DNA from: an uncultured Rickettsiales bacterium
Lineage (GTDB): Bacteria; Pseudomonadota; Alphaproteobacteria; Rickettsiales; SXRF01
Reading direction: 5' to 3'
NCBI GenBank assembly: GCA_964645205.1
Contig: CAZYBO010000005.1
Span: 69,789 to 133,788 of the forward strand
Length of the DNA stretch: 64,000 bases
Made by a program: the position numbers and the translations under genes. The notes under the pieces are model-generated. The model worked only from the letters and a program-made list of their open reading frames with translations, was not told where the DNA came from and made no database searches. Shown one piece after another: positions 34,800 to 59,432 of this stretch (position 1 is the stretch's first letter; each line of letters opens with the position of its first letter).

Positions 34800-35467
34800 C
34801 TCGCCAGCTTTACCACACGCACCTCTCCCCCTTCTGCCGCAAAATTCGCATGATGCTGAAGGAAAAAGACCTGCCGTTTGAACTCGTGCAGGAAAACCCG
34901 TGGGATCGTAATCTGGAATTTTTCGCGCTCAACCCGGCTGGCGAAGTGCCGGTGCTGGTGGAAGATAACGGCACGGTAGTGTCCGGCGCCTACGCTATCG
35001 GCGAATATCTGGAAGAAACCTACCCACAGATCACCCTGCTGGGAAAAACCGCTCCCGAACGCGCCGAAGTGCGCCGCCTGATCGACTGGTTCGACCATAA
35101 GTTTGATTATGAAGTCACGCAGAACGTGCTGTTTGAAAAAGTGTTCAAGCATTATTTCCAGTGCGGCGAGCCGAATTCCGGCGCCATCCGCACGGGAAAA
35201 ACCAACATGCTCTACCATCTCGATTACATCGGCTACTTAGCAAACGAGCGCTATTTCCTCGCGGGCGACGCGCTCACGCTGGCCGATCTTGCGGCCGCCG
35301 CGCATTTATCCGCGCTCGATTATTTAGGCGATGTGCAGTGGGAATATAACCCCTGCGCGCGCAACTGGTACGCGCTGATGAAATCGCGCCCGTCGATGCG
35401 CAGCATCCTTACCGAACGCGTGCGCGGCGTGCGCCCGCCGGTTTATTATGAAAACCCGGATTTCTGA
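34796..35467 (+). CDS. Glutathione S-transferase family protein
   Basis: LYHTHLSPFCRKIR, NPAGEVPVL, LTLADLAAAAHLSALDY. Confidence 0.92.
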   Translation: MTRQLYHTHLSPFCRKIRMMLKEKDLPFELVQENPWDRNLEFFALNPAGEVPVLVEDNGTVVSGAYAIGEYLEETYPQITLLGKTAPERAEVRRLIDWFDHKFDYEVTQNVLFEKVFKHYFQCGEPNSGAIRTGKTNMLYHLDYIGYLANERYFLAGDALTLADLAAAAHLSALDYLGDVQWEYNPCARNWYALMKSRPSMRSILTERVRGVRPPVYYENPDF

Positions 35468-36545
35468 GGGAATCACCTCACAGGCTCGCGCGCTCGGCTT
35501 CGACACCGTAGGCTTCGCACGCCCCCAGCTCGCCGCGCGCTATGCCGCCGGGCTTGGGGAGTTTCTCGCACTCGGGCATCACGGCGACATGCAGTGGATG
35601 GAAGAAAAAGCCGACCGCCGCAGCGATCCGCTGACGCTATGGCCGGAGGCGAAAAGCGTCATCGTGCTCGGTCACAATTACGCACCCGAAACGAATCCGA
35701 TGGAAAAACTCGCGCAGAAAAACATCGGCAATATTTCCTGCTACGCGCTGAACGAAGATTATCATGAGGTGATCAAGAAAAAACTGAAAGCGCTCGCGCG
35801 TTGGTTGGTGGCAACGTACGGCGGCGACGTCAAAGTATTCGTAGACACCGCGCCCGTAATGGAAAAGCCGTTGGCGGAAGCTGCGGGATTGGGTTGGGTG
35901 GGAAAGCACACTTGCTTAGTCAGCCGCGAATTCGGTTCGTGGCTGTTTATCGGCAGCGTGTTTACGACGCTGGATTACAATGTCATCCTGAGCGAAGCGA
36001 AGGATCTTGCCGGAGCAAAGAAAGATTCTTCACCTGCGGTTCAGAATGACATTGCGCACTGCGGCACCTGTACCAAATGTATCGACATTTGCCCCACACA
36101 GGCCTTCACCGCCGAACGCAAGCTGGATGCGCGGCGCTGCATTTCCTATCTTACCATCGAACATAAAGGGCAGATTCCGCTGGAATTCCGCAAAGCCATC
36201 GGCAACCGCATCTACGGGTGCGACGATTGCCTCGCCGTCTGCCCGTGGAATAAATTCGCGCAAGTTGCAAACGAGTCCGCTTATCATCCACGCAAAGAAC
36301 TGGAGGCGCCGTTGCTACGCGAACTCGTGCTGCTCGACGATACCGCCTTCCGCGACTATTTTCGTAAATCCCCAGTTAAACGCATCGGACGCGACCGCTT
36401 CGTACGCAATGTGCTTATCGCCATCGGCAACAGCGGTGATCGTTCGCTAGCCGGAATTATTTCCCCGCTGCAAAATGACGCGTCATCGCTCGTCGCGGAC
36501 ATGGCGACATGGGCAGTTGAAGAATTACAACGAACCGTGCTATAA
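35448..36545 (+). CDS. queG: Epoxyqueuosine reductase
   Basis: YHEVIKKKL, VDTAPVMEK, CGTCTKCIDICPT, RCISYLTIE, YGCDDCLAVCPWN. Confidence 0.96.
   Translation: MKTRISEGITSQARALGFDTVGFARPQLAARYAAGLGEFLALGHHGDMQWMEEKADRRSDPLTLWPEAKSVIVLGHNYAPETNPMEKLAQKNIGNISCYALNEDYHEVIKKKLKALARWLVATYGGDVKVFVDTAPVMEKPLAEAAGLGWVGKHTCLVSREFGSWLFIGSVFTTLDYNVILSEAKDLAGAKKDSSPAVQNDIAHCGTCTKCIDICPTQAFTAERKLDARRCISYLTIEHKGQIPLEFRKAIGNRIYGCDDCLAVCPWNKFAQVANESAYHPRKELEAPLLRELVLLDDTAFRDYFRKSPVKRIGRDRFVRNVLIAIGNSGDRSLAGIISPLQNDASSLVADMATWAVEELQRTVL
35981..36051. repeat. Gene-less YGTC hairpin dimer (type B), in frame inside queG
   Basis: TGTCATCCTGAGCGAAGCGAAGGATCT...AGATTCTTCACCTGCGGTTCAGAATGACA. The left arm is 1 nt from the arms flanking the GIY-YIG gene at 58313. 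Confidence 0.92.
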
Positions 36546-42279: not shown

Positions 42280-42355
42280 TGTCATCCTGAACGAAGTGAA
42301 GGATCTTTCTTCCTGCGTACGGCGTTTAGACCCTTCGCGTGCGCTCAGGATGACA
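42280..42355. repeat. Gene-less YGTC hairpin dimer (type B), intergenic upstream of pdhC
   Basis: TGTCATCCTGAACGAAGTGAAGGATCT...AGACCCTTCGCGTGCGCTCAGGATGACA. Confidence 0.9.
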
Positions 42356-44656: not shown

Positions 44657-45027
44657 TGTCATTCCTGCGAAAGCAGGAATCTTAATCTTGCCCTAAACCC
44701 AATCCTGTATTTCGTCGTACAAATCTTTCCATTCCGGATTCAGCTTTTCAATCAACTCTACTTTCCACTCCCGCTTCCAGCGCTTCAGGCATTTTTCGCG
44801 CTGAATAGCGCGGTCTACATAGTCGAAAACTTCAACATACACTAATTTTTTAATATGGTATTTCTTGCTATGCCCCTCTATCAATCCGTCCTTATGTTCC
44901 CTGACTCTTCTTACCAGATCCTTCGTCACTCCAATGTACAGTACGCCATATCTTTTGCTTGCCAGCACATACACATAGTATCTATGCGTTTTGCTCATTC
45001 AAGATCCCTGCTTTCGCAGGGATGACA
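44657..45027. mobile_element. GIY-YIG cassette A bracketed by inverted TGTC hairpins
   Basis: Arms at 44657-44682 (TGTCATTCCTGCGAAAGCAGGAATCT) and 45002-45027 (AGATCCCTGCTTTCGCAGGGATGACA). Mobility is inferred. Confidence 0.8.
44693..44998 (-). CDS. Short GIY-YIG nuclease (COG2827/YhbQ-like)
   Basis: YYVY..LYIGVT.DLVRR..EHK..AIQREK..KRW..LNPEW.DLY. Confidence 0.92.
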   Translation of the reverse strand: MSKTHRYYVYVLASKRYGVLYIGVTKDLVRRVREHKDGLIEGHSKKYHIKKLVYVEVFDYVDRAIQREKCLKRWKREWKVELIEKLNPEWKDLYDEIQDWV

Positions 45028-45047
45028 ACACAAAACCGTATCCATAC

Positions 45048-45212
45048 TCAATCCGCCCTAGGCCCCACGCCGCTATTGTAGCCCGCGTTGCCTTTCTGCT
45101 TACTCGCTTCCGCCCAGCAGCCTTTGAAATAGGCCTTGTCGCCGACCGACTCGCCTTCCTCCGGCATGCAGTAACAGCCCGACAGAAGCAGCACGAGCGC
45201 AAGCGCGCGCAT
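45048..45212 (-). CDS. 54-aa putative lipoprotein
   Basis: MRALALVLLLSG-C lipobox. ATG overlaps the pdhA TAA. Confidence 0.55.
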   Translation of the reverse strand: MRALALVLLLSGCYCMPEEGESVGDKAYFKGCWAEASKQKGNAGYNSGVGPRAD

Positions 45213-46234
45213 TATTCCACCACCACGTCCGTCCACAGCTCACCCTCGTCCGGTTCGGGGCTGGACTGTGCGAATTCCGCGGCTTCGTTGACGATAACTT
45301 TAATGTCCTTATCGATGTCCTTGAACGCATCCTCGTTGCCGAACCCCTGACGGATCATGTTGCCCTTCAGCCCTTCGATCGGGTCGCGCTGTTCCTTGTA
45401 CTGCTCCACCTCTTCCTTGCTGCGGTATTTCGCAGGGTCGGACATGGAGTGGCCGCGATAGCGGTAGGTTTTCATTTCCAGCAGGAATGGGCCGTTGCCC
45501 TCGCGCACATATTGCACCGCCTCACGCCCCGCTTCGCGCACGGCCAGCACGTCCATGCCGTTGACCTGCTTTCCGGGAATGCCGAAACCCTCGCCGCGGC
45601 GGAACAGTTCGGTGGTGGAGTGCGAGCGCTTCACGCTCGTGCCCATCGCGTATTCATTGTTTTCGATGATGTAGATCACCGGCAGTTTCCACAGGCTCGC
45701 CATGTTGAACGATTCGTATACCTGCCCCTGATTCACCGAGCCGTCGCCGAAATAGGTGAGGCTCAGGCAACCGTTGTTACGGTATTTATGCGCGAACGCG
45801 ATGCCGGTGCCGATGGGCACTTGCGCGCCGACGATGCCGTGGCCGCCGTAGAAATGTTTTTCCGTGGAGAACATGTGCATCGACCCGCCCTTGCCCTTGG
45901 AGAACCCGCCGATACGTCCGGTGAGTTCCGCCATGATGCCCTTGGGATCCATGCCGCAAGCGACCATGTGGCCGTGGTCGCGGTAGCTGGTGATGACGGC
46001 GTCGTTGGGCGTGATGCAATCTTGCATGCCGACGACCACCGCTTCCTGCCCGATATACAAATGGCAGAACCCGCCGATCAGCCCCATGCCGTAAAGCTGC
46101 CCGGCTTTTTCTTCAAAGCGGCGGATCAGCAGCATGTCGCGGTAGAGCTTGAACAGGAGTTCTTTGGAGACGGCGTTGGCGCCGCCTTTCTGGGCAGCGG
46201 TATTTTCGGGAAGTTTGCTCGCAGCTTTCGCCAT
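45212..46234 (-). CDS. pdhA: Pyruvate dehydrogenase E1 alpha
   Basis: GFCHLYIGQEA, GKGGSMH, FGDGSVNQGQVYE, TYRYRGHSMSDP. Confidence 0.97.
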   Translation of the reverse strand: MAKAASKLPENTAAQKGGANAVSKELLFKLYRDMLLIRRFEEKAGQLYGMGLIGGFCHLYIGQEAVVVGMQDCITPNDAVITSYRDHGHMVACGMDPKGIMAELTGRIGGFSKGKGGSMHMFSTEKHFYGGHGIVGAQVPIGTGIAFAHKYRNNGCLSLTYFGDGSVNQGQVYESFNMASLWKLPVIYIIENNEYAMGTSVKRSHSTTELFRRGEGFGIPGKQVNGMDVLAVREAGREAVQYVREGNGPFLLEMKTYRYRGHSMSDPAKYRSKEEVEQYKEQRDPIEGLKGNMIRQGFGNEDAFKDIDKDIKVIVNEAAEFAQSSPEPDEGELWTDVVVE

Positions 46235-46348
46235 GATCGCTCTCAAGGAAAGGGGTATGTGTGAGAGCTTTATAAACACTAAGAACGGGTGGTTATGCAA
46301 GCGTTTAATGCAGCATGCCTTGCTGCATTGCAGCGTAAGCGCGCGCCG

Positions 46349-46684
46349 TTACTGAGCCTGTTCGTTGAGGAAATACACCACCTCGTTTTTACCCGCCATG
46401 CCGAGCACCAGCCGCGCCTGCTCGTCGAGCAGGTCAAGGTCGAGCGAATCGCTACTCAGACCTTTCACTTTTTTCTCCAGCGCATCATGCTCGGCGTTCA
46501 CTTCCGCAAGCTCGGCTTTAAGCTGTTCCAACTTGCGCGTTTCCTTGAATAAAGCCACCACGCCGCGTTCGCCGCTGATCGCATGAAAACCGAGGTAAAA
46601 CAGCACCAGCACACACAAAAGCGATACGGCCGCCCGCTTAAAAAACGGTCGCCTTACTTCAGCATATGCCTGATTTCTTCTCAT
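46349..46684 (-). CDS. ftsB: Septum formation initiator FtsB/DivIC
   Basis: TM helix, YLGFHAISGERG, coiled coil, DLDLLDEQAR..LG. Lies upstream of pdhA. Confidence 0.85.
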   Translation of the reverse strand: MRRNQAYAEVRRPFFKRAAVSLLCVLVLFYLGFHAISGERGVVALFKETRKLEQLKAELAEVNAEHDALEKKVKGLSSDSLDLDLLDEQARLVLGMAGKNEVVYFLNEQAQ

Positions 46685-46765
46685 ATAGCCGCTTAATCTA
46701 CATAAAATTCAGGGATTTTGAAAGATAATTTAACAGTTGCGACTGGATTTATGCGCCCCATGCAG

Positions 46766-46781
46766 TTAAAATTAGCTTAAC
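46766..46781. promoter_or_regulatory. Full CtrA box
   Basis: TTAA-AATTAGC-TTAAC in the divergent gap between ftsB and the 46794 ORF. Confidence 0.6.
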
Positions 46782-46793
46782 ATTAAGGGCTGT

Positions 46794-48520
<1,727 letters not shown>

Positions 48521-48602
48521 TTAACAGTTGAAATTTCATGCTGGGCTACCGGCTGCACATAGGCTATACTGGCTAGAGTGTGACCTTGAACGGGAGTAGC
48601 GT

Positions 48603-49064
48603 ATGAGCATCTCTGTTGGCATGAAAGCACGCAAAAAGCAATCTTCTTTATCAGCCCCGCCCGAGGCGGGCAGCGCACCCCCGCTGGAGAAATCCATACT
48701 CGCGCTGGAAAGCGCCTGCCTGCGTATCCTCGAAAACCGCAACGCCACCGGTGTCCACGACACCGACCGGCTCTACTGGCAACAACGCCTGAAAAACATC
48801 GCCACCCCCGTATCGCTGGCGCTGCGCGAATGCCGCGGCCTGCGCCGCTTCCACAACCATTACCGCCACCGCGAGGACGACGAAGCCGTGCTGCGCCCCG
48901 TCATGGAACCCTGCCCCATCACCATGCTCGCACAGGTATGCGACCACGCGCTGGAAGCCTGCCGCTACGACCTGCTAGGCGTCCGCGACAACGGCCTCAA
49001 CAGCCAACGCCGCGCACTGGAAGCCGCGTTGCAGGGATTTTTGATACGGCAGAGGAAAGCGTAA
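48603..49064 (+). CDS. Hypothetical protein
   Basis: 153-aa ORF between eno and kdsA. No recognised motif. Confidence 0.55.
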   Translation: MSISVGMKARKKQSSLSAPPEAGSAPPLEKSILALESACLRILENRNATGVHDTDRLYWQQRLKNIATPVSLALRECRGLRRFHNHYRHREDDEAVLRPVMEPCPITMLAQVCDHALEACRYDLLGVRDNGLNSQRRALEAALQGFLIRQRKA

Positions 49065-49083
49065 AATAACCTGCTTTAACCTT

Positions 49084-49155
49084 TGTCATTCCTGCGAAAG
49101 CAGGAATCTTGGGTTTAGCCGAAAAGCATAGATTCCTGCTTTCGCAGGAATGACA
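49084..49155. repeat. Gene-less YGTC hairpin dimer (type A)
   Basis: TGTCATTCCTGCGAAAGCAGGAATCT-N20-AGATTCCTGCTTTCGCAGGAATGACA is a perfect 26-bp inverted repeat, identical to the left arm of cassette A. Confidence 0.95.
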
Positions 49156-49165
49156 ACATATGAAG

Positions 49166-49996
49166 TTACAATGCCTTCGTAATCTTATCGTGCTCTTTCA
49201 GCAGCACGAGCAGGCGCTCCATATCGTCGAGCCGCATCATGCAGGGCCCGTCGGACGGTGCGTTGTCGGGGTCTTGGTGCGTTTCCATGAATAATCCCGC
49301 CACGCCGACTGCCACCGCAGCTTTGGCGAGGATGGGCACATATTGCCGCTGGCCGCCAGATGCACCGCCCTGCCCGCCGGGTTGCTGCACGCTGTGCGTG
49401 GCGTCGAACACCACCGGGCAGCCGGTTTGCGCCATGATCGGCAATGCACGCATATCGGTAACCAGCGTGTTGTAACCGAAGCTGGCGCCGCGCTCGGTGA
49501 GGATGACATTCGGGTTGCCCGCGTAATCCATTTTATCCACCGCGTTTTTCATATCCCACGGCGCAAGGAACTGGCCTTTTTTGATGTTGATAACCTTGTC
49601 GGTGCGCGCAGCCGCCAGCAGCATATCCGTCTGGCGCGAAAGAAAGGCGGGAATCTGCAAAATGTCCACATGCGGCGCAACCACTTCGCACTGCTCCTCG
49701 GTGTGCACATCGGTAAGCACCGGACAGCCCAGCTCCTCGCGAATTTCGTCGAAAATCGGCAGCGCCTTCACCAGCCCCACGCCGCGCTTACCCGCGATGC
49801 TCGTGCGGTTCGCCTTATCGTACGACGATTTGTAGATGAACGGGATGTCGAGCGTGTTGGTGAGCTTGATCAGCGCCTCAGCCATGAACAGCGTGTGGTC
49901 GCGGTTTTCCACCTGACATGGCCCCGCGATAAGCACAAACGGCATGTCGTTGCCGATGGTGATGTTGCCGATGGTGATGTGGCGAATAGCGGTCAT
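49166..49996 (-). CDS. kdsA: KDO-8-phosphate synthase
   Basis: [46 protein letters not shown]. Confidence 0.97.
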
Positions 49997-50002
49997 ATCA
50001 GT

Positions 50003-50377
50003 CGTCATCCTGCGGGTTGCGAAGCAACAGCGCAGGATCTCTCCCCGGTGAGCCCGGAATAGAGATCAGCCCACGCAGGATTTTTTGTTTCGATAATAGA
50101 TAGTTTCTTTTCACGATGAATATTCTTCAACTTTTTCTCCGCTTCAATAGCAGCCACAATCGTTTCGTGACATTCGAACCAAACCAGCCGCGTGAGATTA
50201 TACCGTTTCGTGAAACCGGCAACCATCTTTTCTTTATGTTGCCATACACGTTTTACCAGATCGGATGTCACGCCAATGTAAATCGTCCCACGATAGCCAT
50301 TAGACATCATGTAAACATACCCGCCAACCATCGCTTCGGATCCTGTGCTCTTGCCTGCGGCAAGCCACAGGATGACG
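50003..50377. mobile_element. GIY-YIG cassette C bracketed by inverted CGTC hairpins
   Basis: Arms at 50003-50040 (CGTCATCCTGCGGGTTGCGAAGCAACAGCGCAGGATCT) and 50338-50377 (reverse complement CGTCATCCTGTGGCTTGCCGCAGGCAAGAGCACAGGATCC). Confidence 0.8.
50005..50331 (-). CDS. Short GIY-YIG nuclease (COG2827/YhbQ-like)
   Basis: GYVY..IYIGVT.DLVKRV.QHK..AIEAEK..KNPAW.DLY. The stop codon lies inside the hairpin arm. Confidence 0.92.
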
Positions 50378-50381
50378 ATTT

Positions 50382-52425
<2,044 letters not shown>

Positions 52426-52447
52426 GTATTCTCCTAATGACCAAATA

Positions 52448-53161
52448 TCATCGAGCCGCAGCGATGATCCTGCCGAATTCGTCCGCCTTCAGGCTCGCAC
52501 CGCCTACCAGCACGCCGGAAACACCCGGCACGGCGAGGATGGATGCCGCGTTCGCCGCGTTAACCGAGCCGCCGTATAACACCGGGCGAGCTTTCACGAT
52601 GCCGGTAATATAGTCGTGCATCGCGCGAATGTCACCCTCTGTCGGCGTACGGCCAGAACCAATAGCCCAAACCGGCTCATATGCAAGTATAAAATACCCG
52701 TCCGGCAGGGATTCGCGCAACTGCTCCCCGACAATTTCCCGTTCCTTGCCCGCTTCGCGCTGGGCGAGCGTTTCCCCTATGCATATAATCGGCGTCAAAC
52801 CGGCCTTCAGCGCGGCCTGCGCCTTTTTTCGCACGTCTGCGCTGGTTTCGCCATGCAGCGTGCGGCGCTCGGAATGGCCGACGATCACATGCGTGCAGCC
52901 CACCGCTTTAAGCATCGGCGCGGAAATATCGCCGGTAAATGCGCCTTGCGCTTCCGCGTGGCAATCCTGCCCGCCTACTTTAACATGCGAACCGGCCAGC
53001 TCACCGCAAACCTGCGCCAGCAGAGGCGCGGGCGGGCATACCACCACCTGCACGCCCGGCGCGGGCGCGACCGCCGCCGCCGCATGGCAAAGCGCCGAGG
53101 CGAGCGCGGGGTCTCCGTGCATTTTCCAGTTACCGGCTATGATGGTTTCGCGTTGCGTCAT
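52448..53161 (-). CDS. tpiA: Triosephosphate isomerase
   Basis: AGNWKM, VGHSERR, AYEPVWAIG, LYGGSV, LVGGASL. Confidence 0.97.
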   Translation of the reverse strand: MTQRETIIAGNWKMHGDPALASALCHAAAAVAPAPGVQVVVCPPAPLLAQVCGELAGSHVKVGGQDCHAEAQGAFTGDISAPMLKAVGCTHVIVGHSERRTLHGETSADVRKKAQAALKAGLTPIICIGETLAQREAGKEREIVGEQLRESLPDGYFILAYEPVWAIGSGRTPTEGDIRAMHDYITGIVKARPVLYGGSVNAANAASILAVPGVSGVLVGGASLKADEFGRIIAAAR

Positions 53162-53260
53162 GGGTCTTGTCTAAATCATCAAAAACCGTTTTACAATCTC
53201 CATTTGTCGTGCAATTCTGCTGGCTGGCAATTTTTCTGAACCTTTTTCAAGCGCTTATTT

Positions 53261-55168
53261 ATGCTCAACCAAATACGTTCCCAAGCCGCCGGTATCGGCG
53301 CAAAGCTCCTGTTAGCCCTGCTGGTTCTCTCCTTTGCCGTATGGGGCATCGGCGACATGGCCGGCCAGTCCGGTCGTGGCGGGGCAGTCGCCACCGTGGG
53401 CAAGGAACGTATCTCCGTGGCCGCCTACCAGAATGCCGTGCGCCGGGAAACCGAGAACCTGCGCCGCGCGTTCGGCGATAAATATTCGCCGGAGCTGCTG
53501 AAAAGCCTGAACCTCGAAGTGCAGGCGCTCAACCCGATGATCAACCAGTCCCTGCTGGAGCAGGAAGGCCGCGCGCTGAAGCTGATTCCCTCCGACGCCG
53601 ACATCGTGCGCCGTATCCGCAGCAACGCCAACTACCATGACAGCAAAGGCGCGTTCGACCGCAAGCTGTTCGACGCCATGCTGAAAAACGCCGGGCTGTC
53701 GGAAAAAACCTATGTTGAGCAACTGCGCCGCGAAATAGCCGCCGGCATATTGATGGATACGATTTCCGGGAATTACAGGCCGCTGGACATCGCCATCACC
53801 ACCGTGCGCGAAACGCGGGAAGAACAGCGCGGCATCACACTCTACACGCTGAAACCCTCGCTGGTGAGCAACATGCTCGAGCCGGACAAGGCGACGCTTG
53901 AAGCCTATTACGCCGAACACGCCCGCGAATTCAGCGCGCCGGAAGCGCGCACGGCCAGCTACGTCACCCTCAAGAACGGCGACCTCCCCGACAAAGTGCA
54001 GGTTCCCGAAGCCGAGCTGCGCAAGGCGTATAACGAACATCTCGAAGAGTTCCGCCGCCCGGAACGCCGCGACCTCGAACAGTTGCTCTATAGCAGCGAG
54101 GATAACGCCAACAAAGCCTACGACCTGCTGAGGTCGGGCAAAACGGTGGCGCAGGCCGCCAAGCTGATCGGCGTTATCAATAAGGATTCCCTGTCGATGG
54201 ACAAAGTCGAGCGCGGCCAGTTGATCGAAGCGGCGGAAGAGTTAGTGTTCTCGCTCAAAGCGGGTGAATATACCGAACCACTGAAAAGTCCGTTCGGATG
54301 GCATATTTTCCGCGTGAAGAAAATTATCGCGCCTTCCGTCACCCCTTTTGAGGAAGCGCGCGTCGTGCTGGAAAAAGACCTTGCGCAAAAGCTGGCCGAT
54401 GAAGCGCTGGGCAAACTCGCCAACACGCTGGAAGATTCGCTGGCCGCCGGTAGCAGCCTGCAAGAAGCCGCGAAAGAACTCGGCTTGAAAGTGCATACCG
54501 TAGGCCCGGTGACCATGGAAGGAAAAACGCCTGAAGGCACGCTGTCCAAAGCCATTCCCGAACTTGATAAGTTCCTCGATACCGTGTTCAAGACCGATGA
54601 AAAAACCGAATCGTCGCTCATCACCTCGCGCGGCGGCGTATCGTATATCGTGCGCGTAGACAGCGTCACCCCTGAACGCACGCGCGAACTTTCCGAAGTG
54701 CGCGCCGCCGTGGTAGCCGCGTGGCAGATGGAGCATCGCGGCGAGCAACTGGCGAAACTCTCCGAAGAAATTGCAAAGAAAATGGCCGACCCCGCCACGC
54801 GCGGCGAAGCGATTGCGAAATACAACCTTAGCCCGAGCTATAACGGCGCGATCAAGCGTTCGTCGCGCAGCGCGGGCGACACGCAACTGCCGCCCGTGCT
54901 GGTGGCCGAGCTGTTCGCCGCGAAAAAAGGCGGCGGCACACGCGCCTATATGCTGAAATCCGGCGATTACGCGCTGGCGATTGCGGGCGCTGTCGTTCCC
55001 GCCGCGGCGACCGATAAAAGCAAAGCCGACAAAGCCGCGCTTGAAGAGATCGAACGTGAGTTGCGCACCAGTATGCGCAACGAGCTGGTCGAGCAATATC
55101 TGAATGCGCTGGGCAGAAAATATTCCGTCTCCATCGACCATGAACTCATAAAAGCCGCCGCCGAATAA
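53261..55168 (+). CDS. ppiD: PpiD-like periplasmic folding chaperone
   Basis: N-terminal TM (SFAVWGIGD), SurA-N-like domain, parvulin remnant KSPFGWHIFRV. Lies between tpiA and trpE. Confidence 0.88.
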   Translation: MLNQIRSQAAGIGAKLLLALLVLSFAVWGIGDMAGQSGRGGAVATVGKERISVAAYQNAVRRETENLRRAFGDKYSPELLKSLNLEVQALNPMINQSLLEQEGRALKLIPSDADIVRRIRSNANYHDSKGAFDRKLFDAMLKNAGLSEKTYVEQLRREIAAGILMDTISGNYRPLDIAITTVRETREEQRGITLYTLKPSLVSNMLEPDKATLEAYYAEHAREFSAPEARTASYVTLKNGDLPDKVQVPEAELRKAYNEHLEEFRRPERRDLEQLLYSSEDNANKAYDLLRSGKTVAQAAKLIGVINKDSLSMDKVERGQLIEAAEELVFSLKAGEYTEPLKSPFGWHIFRVKKIIAPSVTPFEEARVVLEKDLAQKLADEALGKLANTLEDSLAAGSSLQEAAKELGLKVHTVGPVTMEGKTPEGTLSKAIPELDKFLDTVFKTDEKTESSLITSRGGVSYIVRVDSVTPERTRELSEVRAAVVAAWQMEHRGEQLAKLSEEIAKKMADPATRGEAIAKYNLSPSYNGAIKRSSRSAGDTQLPPVLVAELFAAKKGGGTRAYMLKSGDYALAIAGAVVPAAATDKSKADKAALEEIERELRTSMRNELVEQYLNALGRKYSVSIDHELIKAAAE

Positions 55169-56688
55169 TGTCCGCTTCCGCAAAAGAGCCTACGATTTTC
55201 CCTGCGAAGGACGTATTCACGCAGCATTTCAACCACGCCATATCGCAACTCGTATGGGCGACCTGCCCTGCCGATCTTATCACGCCGGTAGCCGCCATGC
55301 TCCGGCTGATGGACGAGAAAAGCCCGTCCTTCCTGCTGGAGTCGGTTGAAAAAGGTGAAATACGCGGGCGTTATTCCGTCATCGGCCTCATGCCCGACCT
55401 CATCTGGCGCTGCAAGGGCGACAAGGCGGAAATCTGCTACCACGACCGCATCGATGATGCACGTTTCAAGCCGTGCGACGAGCCCGGCCTGCAATCGCTG
55501 CGCACGCTCTATGAAGCGTCCAAGATCGACATCCCCGACGGCCTGCCGCCTATGGCCGCCGGTCTCGTCGGCTATATGAGCTATGACATGGTGCGCCAGA
55601 TGGAAAGCCTCGGAGAAGGGAAATCCGATAGTATCGGCGTGCCCGACGGCTGCTTCATCCGCCCCAAGCTGATGGTGATTTTCGACGCGGTGACCGACCG
55701 CATGTTCATCGTCACCGCAATCTGGGCGGATACGAAACGCGGCGACGCGAACGCCGCCTACGACGCCGCCGTCAAGCGCATCCACCATGTTATCGATACG
55801 CTCGCCGCACCCTTTGCGCTCCCCGAATCCAAAGGCGCCAAGGCGGTGAAGATGAGCGATTTCGTCTCCAACACCACGCGCCCCGAGTACGACAGGATGA
55901 TCGACGACGCGAAGGAGCACATCCGCGCGGGCGATATTTTCCAGGTCGTGCTGTCGCAGCGTTTTTCCGCGCCGTTCAGCCTGCCCCCCTTCTCGCTCTA
56001 CCGCGCACTGCGCCAGCTCAACCCGTCGCCGTTTTTGTTTTATTTGCATTTCGGCGAGTACACGCTGGTCGGCTCCAGCCCGGAAATCCTCGTGCGGTTG
56101 CGCGATGGCGAAGTCACCATCCGCCCCATCGCAGGCACGCGCAAACGCGGGCATGACCGGCATGAGGACGAATTGCTGGCGAAAGACCTGCTCTCCGATC
56201 CCAAGGAAATTTCCGAGCATCTCATGCTGCTCGATCTGGGCCGCAACGATGTCGGCCGCGTATCCAAAATCGGTTCGGTAAAAACCACGCAGCGCATGAC
56301 GATTGAAAATTACAGCCACGTCATGCATATCGTCTCCAACGTCGTCGGCGAAATCGACCCGCGCTACGACGCACTGTCGGCGCTCATCGCAGGCTTCCCC
56401 GCAGGCACCGTATCCGGCGCGCCGAAAGTGCGCGCCATGCAGATCATCGACGAGTTGGAAAAAGAACGCCGCAGCTTCTACGGCGGCTGCATCGGCTATT
56501 TCTCCGGCAACGGGAATATGGACACCGCCATTGCACTACGCACCGGCCTGATCAAAGACGGCAAACTGCATGTGCAGGCCGGCGGCGGCATCGTCGCCGA
56601 AAGCGAAACCCAGGCCGAATTCGAGGAATCCACCAACAAAGCCCGCGCCTTGATGCGGGCGGCGGAAGAGGCTATAAAGTTCGTATGA
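55168..56688 (+). CDS. trpE: Anthranilate synthase component I
   Basis: FLLESVE, GDIFQVVLSQRF, LNPSPF, PIAGTRKRG, FPAGTVSGAPK. Confidence 0.97.
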   Translation: MSASAKEPTIFPAKDVFTQHFNHAISQLVWATCPADLITPVAAMLRLMDEKSPSFLLESVEKGEIRGRYSVIGLMPDLIWRCKGDKAEICYHDRIDDARFKPCDEPGLQSLRTLYEASKIDIPDGLPPMAAGLVGYMSYDMVRQMESLGEGKSDSIGVPDGCFIRPKLMVIFDAVTDRMFIVTAIWADTKRGDANAAYDAAVKRIHHVIDTLAAPFALPESKGAKAVKMSDFVSNTTRPEYDRMIDDAKEHIRAGDIFQVVLSQRFSAPFSLPPFSLYRALRQLNPSPFLFYLHFGEYTLVGSSPEILVRLRDGEVTIRPIAGTRKRGHDRHEDELLAKDLLSDPKEISEHLMLLDLGRNDVGRVSKIGSVKTTQRMTIENYSHVMHIVSNVVGEIDPRYDALSALIAGFPAGTVSGAPKVRAMQIIDELEKERRSFYGGCIGYFSGNGNMDTAIALRTGLIKDGKLHVQAGGGIVAESETQAEFEESTNKARALMRAAEEAIKFV

Positions 56689-57257
56689 AAATCCTCCTCC
56701 TCGATAATTACGACAGCTTTACTTACAACCTGCTGCATTATATCGGCGAGCTGGGCGCGGAAGTTGTCGTCTATCGCAATGATAAAATCAGCGTCGATGA
56801 GGTAATGAAAATAAAGCCAAACGGCATCGTCATCTCCCCCGGTCCAGGCGCGCCGAAGGAATCGGGCATCTGTTTAGACCTCATCAAAAAAGCCTCCGGC
56901 AGCATCCCGATTTTCGGGGTGTGCTTAGGCCAGCAAGCCATCGGTGAAGCGTTCGGCGGAAAAGTTATTCGCGCACCGAAGCCGATGCACGGCAAAGTCA
57001 GCGAGATTTACCACGAAGGCCGCACCCTGTTCAAAGGCCTGCCCGTGCCGTTCAAAGCCACGCGCTACCACTCGCTCATCGTCGAGCGCGAGTCGCTTCC
57101 CGATTGTTTAGAGGTCACGGCGATTACTGCCGAAGACGGTCTCATCATGGGGCTTTCGCACAAAACCCACAATACCCACGGCGTACAGTTCCACCCGGAA
57201 TCCATCGCGTCGGAGCAAGGCCATGAGTTGATAAAGAATTTCCTCGACGGAGTATAA
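56685..57257 (+). CDS. trpG: Anthranilate synthase component II (glutamine amidotransferase)
   Basis: DNYDSFTYNL, SPGPG, GVCLGQQ, RYHSL, QFHPES. Confidence 0.96.
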   Translation: MKILLLDNYDSFTYNLLHYIGELGAEVVVYRNDKISVDEVMKIKPNGIVISPGPGAPKESGICLDLIKKASGSIPIFGVCLGQQAIGEAFGGKVIRAPKPMHGKVSEIYHEGRTLFKGLPVPFKATRYHSLIVERESLPDCLEVTAITAEDGLIMGLSHKTHNTHGVQFHPESIASEQGHELIKNFLDGV

Positions 57258-57259
57258 GC

Positions 57260-58288
57260 ATGACCACCCCCATGCACGATATTCTCACCCTGCTCGCCGA
57301 ACGCAAGAACCTGACGCAGGACGCGGCCGTGCGCGCGTTCCAGATCATCATGAACGGCGGCGCGACGCCAGCGCAGATGGCGGCATTTATGATGGGCTTG
57401 CGCATGAAGGGCGAAACGGCGGAGGAAATTACCGGCGGGGCGATCGCCCTGCGTGCGAAAGCGCCGCATGTGAAGGTGCCTGCAGGTGCGATCGACACAT
57501 GCGGCACGGGCGGCGACGCCAAGGGCACGTACAATATTTCCACCGCCGTGGCGTTCGTGCTGGCGGCCTGCGGCGTACCGGTGGCCAAGCACGGCAACCG
57601 CTCGGTATCCTCGCAATCCGGCTCCGCCGACGTGTTGGCGATGCTCGGCGTGAATATCAATGCGGAAATCCCGGTGCTGCTGCGCTGCCTCGAGCAGTGC
57701 AATATCTGCTTCCTGATGGCGCCGCGCTTCCACACCGCCATGCGCCATGTCGCCCCGCTACGGCAGGAGCTTGGGCTGCGCACCGTATTCAACTTGCTTG
57801 GCCCCCTCTCCAACCCTGCCACGCCCGACTTTCAGTTACTCGGTGTTTATTCGGAAAACTGGCTGGAGCCGATGGCACATGCGCTGAAGTCGCTCGGCGT
57901 CAAAGCCGCTTGGGTCGTGCATGGCAGCGACGGGCTGGACGAACTTACGCTGTCGGGCACCTCGCAAGTCGCCGAACTGAAAGACGGCAACGTGCGCCGT
58001 TTCGACATCACCCCTGAAGATGCCGGCCTCGCGCGCGCGTCCATCGACGAGCTCAGGGGACAATCCCCCGAATACAACGCCAACGCCCTGCAACACGCGC
58101 TCTCCGGCGCCGACAGCGCCTACCGCCGCGCCGTACTGCTCAACGCGAGCGCCGGTTTGATCGTCGCGGGCAAAGCCGCCGACCTCAAAGCAGGCGTAGC
58201 ACTCGCCGCCGCCGCCATCGATTCGGGTGATGCGTATAAGGTTCTCAAAAAGCTGGTCGATGTGAGCAATACTAAAGTGTCATCCTGA
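57260..58288 (+). CDS. trpD: Anthranilate phosphoribosyltransferase
   Basis: DTCGTGGD, NISTA, KHGNRSVSSQSGSAD, HGSDGLDE. The stop codon lies inside a hairpin arm. Confidence 0.97.
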   Translation: MTTPMHDILTLLAERKNLTQDAAVRAFQIIMNGGATPAQMAAFMMGLRMKGETAEEITGGAIALRAKAPHVKVPAGAIDTCGTGGDAKGTYNISTAVAFVLAACGVPVAKHGNRSVSSQSGSADVLAMLGVNINAEIPVLLRCLEQCNICFLMAPRFHTAMRHVAPLRQELGLRTVFNLLGPLSNPATPDFQLLGVYSENWLEPMAHALKSLGVKAAWVVHGSDGLDELTLSGTSQVAELKDGNVRRFDITPEDAGLARASIDELRGQSPEYNANALQHALSGADSAYRRAVLLNASAGLIVAGKAADLKAGVALAAAAIDSGDAYKVLKKLVDVSNTKVSS

Positions 58289-58631
58289 GCGTAGCGAAGG
58301 ATCTGGCCGTTTATGCTAATCTACTACGTTTATATACTCACGAGCCCCAATAACAGGGTTATGTATATTGGCGTTACGAACAACCTTGAACGCCGTGTAT
58401 GGGAGCATAAATCTAAAGCCGTATCTGGATTTACCCAAAAATATAATGTGACAAAATTGGTATATTTTGAAGAATGCTCCGATATTATGTCGGCGATTGC
58501 TCGCGAAAAACAGATTAAAGGCTGGCTACGAAAAAAGAAAGATGCGCTGGTAGAAGTCACCAACCCGGAATGGAAAGATATAAGCGTGGAATGGTACGCA
58601 AGTGAGATCCTTCGCTGCGCTCAGGATGACA
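58278..58631. mobile_element. GIY-YIG cassette B bracketed by inverted TGTC hairpins
   Basis: Arms at 58278-58304 (TGTCATCCTGAGCGTAGCGAAGGATCT) and 58605-58631 (AGATCCTTCGCTGCGCTCAGGATGACA), 26/27 inverted match. Confidence 0.82.
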
Positions 58632-58636
58632 AGTAA
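58313..58636 (+). CDS. Short GIY-YIG nuclease (COG2827/YhbQ-like)
   Basis: YYVY..MYIGVTNNLERR.WEHK..AIAREK.IKGW..TNPEWKD. The C-terminal EILRCAQDDK is encoded by the right arm. Confidence 0.92.
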   Translation: MLIYYVYILTSPNNRVMYIGVTNNLERRVWEHKSKAVSGFTQKYNVTKLVYFEECSDIMSAIAREKQIKGWLRKKKDALVEVTNPEWKDISVEWYASEILRCAQDDK

Positions 58637-58637
58637 C

Positions 58638-59432
58638 ATGACAGACACCCTCGCCGCCATCTGTGCCGCCAAGCGTGAGCACATCGCCAAGCGCAAGGCC
58701 GCCGCACCGGAAGGCCGCATACTGGAGGAGGCGCAGCGCGCCTTGCCCGCACGCGGATTCAGACGGGCGTTGCAGGAAAAGCAAAACAACAAAAAATTCG
58801 GTCTCATCGCGGAAATCAAAAAGGCCTCACCGAGCAAGGGCATCATCCGCGCGGATTTCGACCCCGCGGCACTGGCGAAGGCATATGAAGAAGGCGGCGC
58901 GGCGTGCCTTTCCGTGCTCACCGACGAGCCGTATTTTCAGGGTAGCGATGCGTATCTCGCGCAGGCGCGAAACGCCGTGGGCCTGCCGGTGCTGCGCAAG
59001 GATTTTATGCTCGATCCGTACCAGATCATTGAATCGCGCGCGCTTGGAGCGGATTGTATCCTGCTCATCATGGCCGCCCTGTCCGACGCGCAGGCGAAAG
59101 AACTGGACGAAGCCGCCACAAAACTTGGTATGGACACGCTGGTCGAAGTACACGACGAATATGAGATGGAACGCGCGGTTATGCACCTGCGCCCTGCCCT
59201 GCTTGGCATCAATAACCGCAACCTGAAAACGCTGAAGGTAGACATCGAAACCTCGCGGCGGTTGGCAGCACGGCTCCCAAAGGACGTAACCGGCGTGTGC
59301 GAAAGCGGTATTGAAACGCACCGCGATCTGCTGTATCTCCGGGAAAGCGGTTTTACCTGTTTCCTCGTCGGCGAATCGCTGATGCGGCAGGCGGATGTGA
59401 CGAAAGCGACTCGAACCCTGTTGGGAGGATAG
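58638..59432 (+). CDS. trpC: Indole-3-glycerol-phosphate synthase
   Basis: IAEIKKASPSKG, SVLTD, LRKDF, GINNRNL, ESGI. Confidence 0.97.
   Translation: MTDTLAAICAAKREHIAKRKAAAPEGRILEEAQRALPARGFRRALQEKQNNKKFGLIAEIKKASPSKGIIRADFDPAALAKAYEEGGAACLSVLTDEPYFQGSDAYLAQARNAVGLPVLRKDFMLDPYQIIESRALGADCILLIMAALSDAQAKELDEAATKLGMDTLVEVHDEYEMERAVMHLRPALLGINNRNLKTLKVDIETSRRLAARLPKDVTGVCESGIETHRDLLYLRESGFTCFLVGESLMRQADVTKATRTLLGG

Follow-up and report, generated by a model that had tools for sequence, protein, structure and literature searches.

Three probable members of the Ssn nuclease family, each bracketed by tagged hairpins of its own type, in a Rickettsiales genome

Do small GIY-YIG nucleases power the families of tagged hairpin repeats that bracket their genes? 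The question is raised by a 64,000-nt stretch of contig CAZYBO010000005.1 (positions 69,789 to 133,788 of the forward strand; GenBank assembly GCA_964645205.1) from an uncultured Rickettsiales bacterium. We call this whole stretch the window and count positions from its first letter, unless a contig is given. A preliminary description, made from the letters alone, singled out positions 44,657 to 58,631 as a candidate new system, in which three GIY-YIG genes (here ssnA, ssnB and ssnC) are paired with hairpins that carry an unpaired YGTC tag. Judged by sequence, the three genes are most probably new members of the Ssn family of nucleases, with cognate SRM hairpins. The genome (G000) is a 2.17-Mb assembly of 14 contigs, with 56.5% GC and 99.3% completeness; we compared it with 40 relatives from other genera (about 80% amino-acid identity), giving a set of 41 genomes.

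Ssn proteins were described by Chenal et al. 2025 (Nat Commun, PMC11893778) as single-domain GIY-YIG nucleases with a cognate hairpin (NTS/SRM, CGTCATTCCCGCG...GCGGGAATC); the Neisseria NTS is defined as CGTCATTCCCGCGMAVGCGGGAATCYRG, and SsnA is a 94-aa GIY-YIG protein (cd10448). Among RefSeq homologs of SsnA, an SRM lies in the flanking regions of 71%, and on both sides of the gene in 42%. Binding of the hairpin by SsnA and three homologs requires single-stranded DNA (ssDNA), which is cut a few nucleotides upstream of the hairpin. Cleavage is lost in the mutants Y6A, Y17A and E64A, cutting is governed by the three bases before the stem and binding by the C after it, and distant homologs favour their own motif. 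The same paper reports an in vivo effect of Ssn on transformation in N. meningitidis, likens NTS-ssnA-NTS to an insertion sequence, and draws the parallel with IS200/IS605 and with transposases associated with repetitive extragenic palindromes (REPs) (PMC11893778). The association of gene and repeat, the cleavage of ssDNA hairpins and the IS200/IS605 analogy are thus all in print, and the locus is a fresh example of a published system instead of the new one first proposed.

Three nuclease genes and their bracketing hairpins

The genes are ssnA (44693..44998, minus strand, 101 aa), ssnC (50005..50331, minus strand, 108 aa) and ssnB (58313..58636, plus strand, 107 aa). GIY-YIG (Pfam PF01541) is the sole domain found in each protein, with E-values in the range of 1e-12 to 4e-19 (8e-15, 1.4e-12 and 3.9e-19, respectively). 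They are 40–51% identical to one another, and the key positions Y10, Y21-I-G23, R31, H35, E68 and N87 (ssnA numbering, used throughout) are invariant in an alignment of 55 sequences, in line with the three divergent genes of about 100 aa within 14 kb that the preliminary description had reported. A tblastn search of the assembly returned no further ssn-type gene; all three lie within 13.9 kb, and the chance of three random points falling inside such an interval is about 1e-4. Each gene is oriented as its host operon. An orientation bias of ssn genes relative to their neighbours was considered and rejected, as the observed numbers (59 same, 25 opposite) are what gene order alone yields.

Several properties of the proteins point to the Ssn family. 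Their sizes and single-domain build fall within the roughly 90–110 aa, free of any extra DNA-binding domain, that is typical of Ssn. Y10, Y21 and E68 of ssnA correspond to Y6, Y17 and E64 of the N. meningitidis SsnA, an equivalence by position only; in the 94-aa homologs the two tyrosines are at residues 6 and 17 by counting, and the glutamate at 64 by alignment. The AlphaFold model of ssnA is one compact GIY-YIG domain (pLDDT 87, pTM 0.80), and its closest solved folds are UPF0213 and the nuclease domain of Slx1 (Foldseek probability 1.0; rmsd to Slx1 2.6–2.8 Å over about 75 columns). No solved Ssn structure was found in the PDB by a search with the ssnA sequence or by a fold search with its model (library to April 2026), and no NCBIfam model covers the three proteins. 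The genome encodes one other GIY-YIG protein, YhbQ/UPF0213-like (contig C4:300166-300363), whose gene, possibly next to a tRNA gene, has no tagged hairpins nearby and serves as an internal negative control.

The ssn genes differ in composition from their surroundings, with 42–46% GC as compared to 58–63% in neighbouring genes, and 46–52% as compared to 70–78% at third codon positions; ssnA alone has 42% GC and its adjoining genes 58–61%. The reading frames are nevertheless constrained, with dN of 0.15–0.20 (only dN was used between genera, dS being saturated).

Each ssn gene is bracketed by inverted hairpin arms of its own type with the tags facing outward, at all three cassettes as first described. 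In cassette A, the arm at the 3' end of ssnA (44656/44657..44683, plus strand; TGTCATTCCTGCGAAAGCAGGAATCTT) has a T-GTC tag, an 8-bp stem and a GAAA loop and folds as ssDNA at -7.8 kcal/mol (z -5.1), and the arm at the 5' end (45001..45028, minus strand; TTGTCATCCCTGCGAAAGCAGGGATCTT) folds at -8.6 kcal/mol (z -5.1); the two are 93% complementary and differ by one compensated base pair. The arms of cassette C are two-tier hairpins. One (50001..50039, plus strand; TCGTCATCCTGCGGGTTGCGAAGCAACAGCGCAGGATC; -12.9 kcal/mol, z -4.0) codes for the C-terminal tail of ssnC and its TGA stop and, on the minus strand, holds an ATG that overlaps the ssnC stop upstream of the ancestral kdsA start; the other, at the 5' end of ssnC (50339..50378, minus strand; TCGTCATCCTGTGGCTTGCCGCAGGCAAGAGCACAGGATC; -13.2 kcal/mol, z -4.7), lies 5 nt past the pyrG stop. 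In cassette B, the left arm (58278..58304, plus strand; TGTCATCCTGAGCGTAGCGAAGGATCT) includes the trpD stop TGA (58286-58288), and the right arm (58605..58631, minus strand), which encodes the final ~10 codons of ssnB, is followed by the trpC start ATG at 58638; these arms are 96% complementary. The A and C arms fold far better as ssDNA than shuffled sequence (z from -4 to -5.1).

The three types can be written as TGTC-ATTCCTGC-GAAA-GCAGGAAT-C (A), TGTC-ATCCT-GA-GC-GNA-GC-GA-AGGAT-C (B) and, for the two-tier type C, CGTC-ATCCTG(C/T)G-G-(5-6-bp upper stem with a GNA-type loop)-AG-C(G/A)CAGGAT-C. Type A is close to the Neisseria NTS: its arm agrees with the NTS at 24 of 28 positions, and of the four mismatches two are the partners in one base pair; some copies in the genome have the exact CCCGCG...CGCGGG stem. 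As in the published system, the genes have directional hairpins on both sides, in which GTC precedes the stem on its 5' side and C follows it; in 135 pattern matches (including some sites matched by both the A and D patterns, D being a fourth type described below) the GTC tag is present in 132 and the C in 123. Two freely varying stem positions in types A and D stay Watson-Crick paired in 77/77 and 75/77 copies. The base before the tag (position -1, n=77) is T in 58 arms and C in 18, and the conserved unit starts at YY-GTCAT, with flanks beyond it that are merely G-poor. No target-site duplication is visible around the arms, again as first noted.

Type-C hairpins from four relatives (G003, G012, G013, G034) give a hint of what such an enzyme may read. 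Their upper stem differs in nearly every copy and always pairs, and their lower stem, G/AG internal loop and G-N-A-type loop are fixed, which suggests that the lower stem, internal loop and tag are the parts read by the enzyme.

Hairpin type follows protein clade, and the bracketing recurs across phyla

The arrangement extends well beyond this genome. Genes for ssn were found in 29 of the 41 genomes and none in the other 12, and 40 of 60 ssn loci in the 40 relatives have inverted flanking arms. In a multi-phylum set (including CPR, Bacteroidota and Planctomycetota), inverted arms were seen at 59 of 78 loci as compared to 18 in cross-locus controls, with GTC tags on both sides in 46 of the 59. 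Hairpin type and protein clade change together: placing the types on the protein tree takes 24 label changes as compared to 38.2 in shuffles (a value reached in 0/200), and protein and arm distances are correlated (Mantel r = 0.26, reached in 0/999 permutations). The enrichment of hairpins in the flanks and the co-phylogeny of protein and hairpin, both proposed as checks of the preliminary description, thus came out in its favour. The two arms of one gene are 0.35 apart, as compared to 0.53 for the arms of the nearest protein relative and 0.79 for those of a random locus. The B clade (which contains ssnB) has 100% SH-aLRT support and the C clade 96%; ssnC groups in the latter with genes of G013 and G012 that bear the same hairpin type, and type-C hairpins are found in genomes with C-clade genes (G012, G013, G034).

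Because protein clades and hairpin types co-vary, the specificity of these Ssn proteins is probably cognate. The proposal that they are cognate nickases is supported as to the pairing; as to the nicking, it agrees with the published biochemistry of four homologs and may hold here by analogy.

The same data bear on whether genes and hairpins could have come together by coincidence, the GIY-YIG proteins being free-standing endonucleases of the homing type and the hairpins REP-like terminator or stabiliser elements that gather in the same permissive sites. It is true that the junctions occupied here collect unrelated inserts in relatives (toxin-antitoxin-like pairs and small open reading frames (ORFs)), and that 59% of arm ends face the 3' end of a gene, as is typical of REPs. 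Coincidence is nonetheless hard to credit and we consider it highly improbable, as both arms share one type which tracks the protein clade, the bracketing recurs at 59/78 loci across phyla, and the YhbQ-like gene lacks such hairpins. Nor do the genes look like homing endonucleases of the I-TevI type, which join the nuclease domain to a DNA-binding domain of its own, reside in introns, inteins or phages and cleave empty alleles as dsDNA: the proteins are single-domain, with no extra DNA-binding domain, and the genes stand free between chromosomal operon genes.

Gene-less dimers, landing sites and empty alleles

Apart from the cassettes, the window contains three dimers without a gene, all at or within 1 nt of the places first given for them: a type-A dimer downstream of kdsA with two perfect arms, outward tags and a variable spacer (49083..49156), a type-B dimer upstream of pdhC (E2) whose right arm has decayed (42280..42355), and a type-B dimer that lies in frame in queG, directly before the Fe-S domain (35981..36049). 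Genome-wide we count about 117 hairpins, including 43 of type A, 40 of type B and 34 of type D, a fourth family (GTCATCCCGGCGCAGGCCGGGATCCAC; ~34 copies, mostly dimers, e.g. C3:151829-151908 and C3:68815-68893); type C is limited to its two cassette arms. Reversed patterns, used as controls, gave 0 matches in all 41 genomes, as compared to 37–40 matches per type in G000. All 42 strict dimers (53–89 nt long) have their tags outward and none inward, and most apparent singletons have a decayed partner. Type-B dimers show a consistent left/right asymmetry and spacer subfamilies. A few single hairpins have a tag on both sides (GTCAT-stem-loop-stem-ATGAC; C1:4137-4162, C1:31627, C1:270646 and C6:80630) and resemble what recombination between the arms of a dimer would leave behind.

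These repeats also have the traits of CGTC-tagged REPs, an unpaired CGTC-type tag at one end and a mostly head-to-head dimeric layout. Di Nocera, De Gregorio and Rocco 2013 (PMC3733652) described such REPs as mainly alphaproteobacterial, mostly head-to-head dimers and occasionally intragenic, found no dedicated enzyme for them (as the preliminary description also states), and identified CGTC-1 REPs with dRS3 in Neisseria and RPE-6 in Rickettsia. Since dRS3 is also the NTS core (PMC11893778), it follows by transitivity that the SRM is the CGTC REP. We did not find this equation stated in the literature, PMC11893778 does not cite PMC3733652, and our literature search found no later paper on Ssn mobility.

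With type-matched hairpins and head-to-head dimers, the layout resembles that of RAYT genes and REPINs without a transposase, as had been suggested. One may ask if a RAYT/IS200-type Y1 transposase moves the hairpins, with the GIY-YIG genes as passengers, a proposal to which the REPIN-like dimers lend some colour. The tag, however, is YGTC and not GTAG, and a search for the Y1/HUH transposase domain (PF01797) gave no match in G000, G001, G014, G017 and G031, the control search being positive in E. coli and five other genomes. For G000 this explanation is refuted, barring the missing 0.7% of the assembly, and overall we give it next to no chance.

The cassettes sit between genes of housekeeping operons, as first reported: cassette A between pdhA and pdhB, where a small ORF also lies, cassette C between pyrG and kdsA, and cassette B between trpD and trpC. 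The pyrG|kdsA junction is empty in G001, G004, G005, G009 and G010, where the two genes share a 4-nt ATGA stop/start overlap. In G000, 370 nt of cassette C separate them; a new pyrG stop lies 5 nt before the left arm, and the GGATGAC of the right arm ends ssnC and also offers an ATG that precedes the old kdsA start by 12 nt. Likewise, trpD|trpC is an ATGA overlap in G004, G009, G015 and others, and is occupied by a B-clade ssn in G000, G001, G003 and G008; in G010 an ssn of another clade (L2-type) with other hairpins lies upstream of trpC, and trpD was not found nearby. Two of the three cassettes thus occupy what were once ATGA overlaps, and ATGA is also found in the tag when it is read in reverse (ATGAC). 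As a general rule, targeting of start codons was dropped: 39% of arm ends face a start, as compared to 34% of random positions, and most ends (70/119, 59%, genome-wide) face the 3' end of a gene.

At pdhA|pdhB, ssnA is found in G000, G001 and G009. The small ORF there (45048-45212, minus strand) encodes 54 aa with a lipoprotein-like signal (MRALALVLLLSGC...) and is conserved across several of the family's genera; relative to this ORF, ssnA is downstream in G000 and upstream, on the opposite side, in G009. In G008, G006 and G032 (loci L091, L095 and L102) the same junction has an ORF of about 120 aa framed by runs of GGTTTTAG/CTAAAACC-like heptamers.

The dimer in queG (35448-36545, epoxyqueuosine reductase) adds 69 nt, or 23 codons, before the 4Fe-4S domain and keeps the frame. 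The loop that holds it has 31 codons in G000 and 13 in empty alleles (39 nt, repeat-free in 8 relatives). Other type-B dimers with the same left boundary occupy it in G008 and G014, and a different, longer repeat in G015 and G003.

Cassettes and gene-less dimers are therefore insertions: sister genera lack them at the corresponding junctions, their composition is unlike that of the host, and one has landed in frame inside a gene. The check for empty sites in relatives thus succeeded at pyrG|kdsA, trpD|trpC and the queG loop. Possibly these insertions are old. The pdhA|pdhB and pyrG|kdsA junctions are recurrent landing sites. Since other relatives carry unrelated inserts there (toxin-antitoxin-like pairs and further small ORFs among them), inserts seem able to survive at tight junctions of essential operons.

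Do the nucleases drive the repeats?

By analogy with the characterised homologs, each Ssn protein would bind the folded hairpin of its own type when the DNA is single-stranded, reading the lower stem, the unpaired YGTC tag on its 5' side and the C after the stem, and would cut the strand hydrolytically, a few nucleotides to the 5' side of the tag. With its arms inverted, a unit would receive one cut per strand, at its outer edge. What the sequences do show is that units persist at sites where the host tolerates inserts, tight junctions of essential operons for instance, with arms that even provide stop and start signals.

A number of observations weigh against Ssn membership or against this mechanism. 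The published degenerate SRM string (HGTCWYN(0-2)YYVSBRHN(0-5)WNVSBRGN(0-2)RNCYNB) finds no match among the six arms of the window. Type A fails it at a single degenerate position (V against T, in a T:A stem pair), and genome-wide the string has 51 matches as compared to 6–13 in simulated genomes; since it was built by hand from 29 genomes, the mismatch is a limit of the string and not an exclusion from Ssn. For type B the nearest-neighbour model predicts no stable hairpin (z about 0); the inner pair co-varies nonetheless (G:C 23, A:T 16, other 1), and 38 of 40 copies have the tandem G-A positions unchanged. Relatives are available only at genus distance, and insertion boundaries and the number of events are accordingly approximate. 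Type by type, the link of gene and repeat is loose. In G031, a 100% complete genome, there are 57 type-B hairpins (many of them with the exact consensus sequence) and 6 matches to the type-A pattern, with no ssn even by profile search and no Y1 transposase, and G017 (88% complete) has 25 type-B hairpins with neither gene; such a family either outlived its own nuclease or never needed one. For the 34 type-D hairpins of G000 itself, a search at E < 1 returned neither a D-clade ssn gene nor a pseudogene. Such genes, with arms of type D, occur in G001, G016, G018 and others, and SsnA may possibly cross-cut type D. In G001 (locus L116, contig C6, trpD|trpC), ssnB is intact, both of its arms lack the GTCAT tag and the genome has 0 type-B hairpins; this gene looks like an immobilised or domesticated copy. 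Finally, type C has no dispersed copies in G000. The expected relation of gene presence to repeat copy number is thus broken by G031 and G017, and the idea that the nucleases spread or maintain the repeats is partly contradicted by G031, orphan type D, the ssnB of G001 and unspread type C.

Two further readings, each of which is compatible with the assignment to Ssn, concern what the cassettes are for. It is conceivable, though we would not favour it, that they are autonomous transposons, in which the GIY-YIG nuclease acts as the transposase by nicking each strand at the outer hairpin edges, with the dimers that lack a gene as non-autonomous, REPIN-like offshoots mobilised in trans. This would fit the presence/absence patterns at operon junctions and within queG, the different ssn clades found upstream of trpC according to genus (L2-type in G010; B-type in G000, G001, G003 and G008), the foreign base composition of ssn, and the greater closeness of the arms of one gene to each other than to those of the nearest protein relative. 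The conserved unit end YY-GTCAT is the site of the published cut, no other candidate transposase is present, and the asymmetry and spacer subfamilies of type-B dimers are as expected if they were copied from a progenitor. It sits poorly, on the other hand, with a hydrolytic GIY-YIG enzyme, whose reaction passes through no covalent intermediate and which is not known to transfer strands, and with published cutting that adjoins existing hairpins and not empty sites. The absent target-site duplication, the genomes with many well-conserved hairpins and no ssn, and the failure of type C to spread in G000, though dispersed in G003, G012, G013 and G034, also count against it. Neither identical cassette copies nor population polymorphism was found in public reads: the joints seen in a check for excision and empty alleles derived from dimers of other organisms, none of the runs contained this one, and the best run had 13% shared words, with 151-nt contigs at depth 2–3. 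The idea itself was already raised in PMC11893778.

Alternatively, and with a similarly modest chance of being right, the nucleases may be a domesticated host function that cuts incoming or exposed ssDNA near the repeats and thereby tunes recombination or transformation, as proposed in Neisseria, with the cassette layout as a relic. The transformation effect in N. meningitidis argues for this, as do the ComEC encoded in G000 and the fact that three genera retain ssnA at the pdh junction and four retain ssnB at trpD|trpC, the ORFs being intact and their catalytic residues invariant. Yet 12 of the 41 genomes do without any ssn, which makes it dispensable; the number and type of ssn copies differ across genera, the AT-rich codon usage, so different from that of the neighbours, argues against long residence, and the position of ssnA inside the pdh junction differs between G000 and G009.

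Returning to the Ssn assignment, a wider and speculative generalisation, for which we hold out less than even hope, is that SRM-ssn-SRM units are autonomous mobile elements of a mechanistically new class. A hydrolytic GIY-YIG nickase of about 100 aa, acting on ssDNA, would cut each strand at their outer edges and host replication or repair would complete the process; gene-less dimers (including in-frame inserts, Rickettsia palindromic elements (RPE) and Neisseria dRS3) would be the non-autonomous forms, each clade would drive its own lineage, and orphan repeats would mark extinct drivers.

Either way, the locus is a natural test bed for the question, left by PMC11893778, of whether Ssn nucleases power CGTC-tagged repeat families. 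One genome combines three nuclease/hairpin pairs that are probably orthogonal, a repeat family that lacks a nuclease and a nuclease whose repeats are not dispersed, with empty sites available in sister genera. Its three hairpin architectures (a simple stem, a mini-hairpin with G-A mismatches, and a two-tier form with a free upper stem) hint at the DNA parts that the enzyme reads, and knowing these parts matters for the use of Ssn as programmable ssDNA cutters.

Among known systems, Ssn/NTS is the closest. Both have a single-domain GIY-YIG protein of about 95–108 aa with the same catalytic Tyr/Tyr/Glu positions, encoded by a gene with an inverted, directional hairpin on either side, each of which has an unpaired (C/T)GTC tag and, behind the stem, a C; both also have many gene-less copies; type A is nearly the Neisseria NTS. 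What differs here is that 14 kb of a small, uncultured, alphaproteobacterial-like genome hold three divergent paralogs with a hairpin type apiece, that the GNA loop of type B is surrounded by tandem G-A mismatches and type C has a two-tier form with a hypervariable upper stem, and that the cassettes, known here from sequence, are inside essential operons to which they supply stop and start codons. CGTC-tagged REPs share the unpaired CGTC/TGTC tag at one end. REP/REPIN-RAYT and IS200/IS605 systems likewise place a small gene between inverted hairpin repeats, have abundant gene-less inverted dimers and, if the analogy with Ssn biochemistry holds, would share the recognition of ssDNA hairpins and cleavage beside them; they differ in using an HUH enzyme with a covalent tyrosine intermediate in place of a hydrolytic GIY-YIG, and a GTAG in place of a YGTC tag. 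The queG dimer recalls RPE in that it adds 23 codons in a surface loop with the frame intact, other dimers being found there in relatives, whereas RPE belong to another lineage and the repeat described here has its type tied to a nuclease gene of the same genome. UPF0213/YhbQ proteins and the Slx1 domain (1ZG2, 6SEH, 7CQ2) share the GIY-YIG core fold, at only 25–30% identity, and lack both the conserved C-terminal NP-W-DL helix and the associated hairpins.

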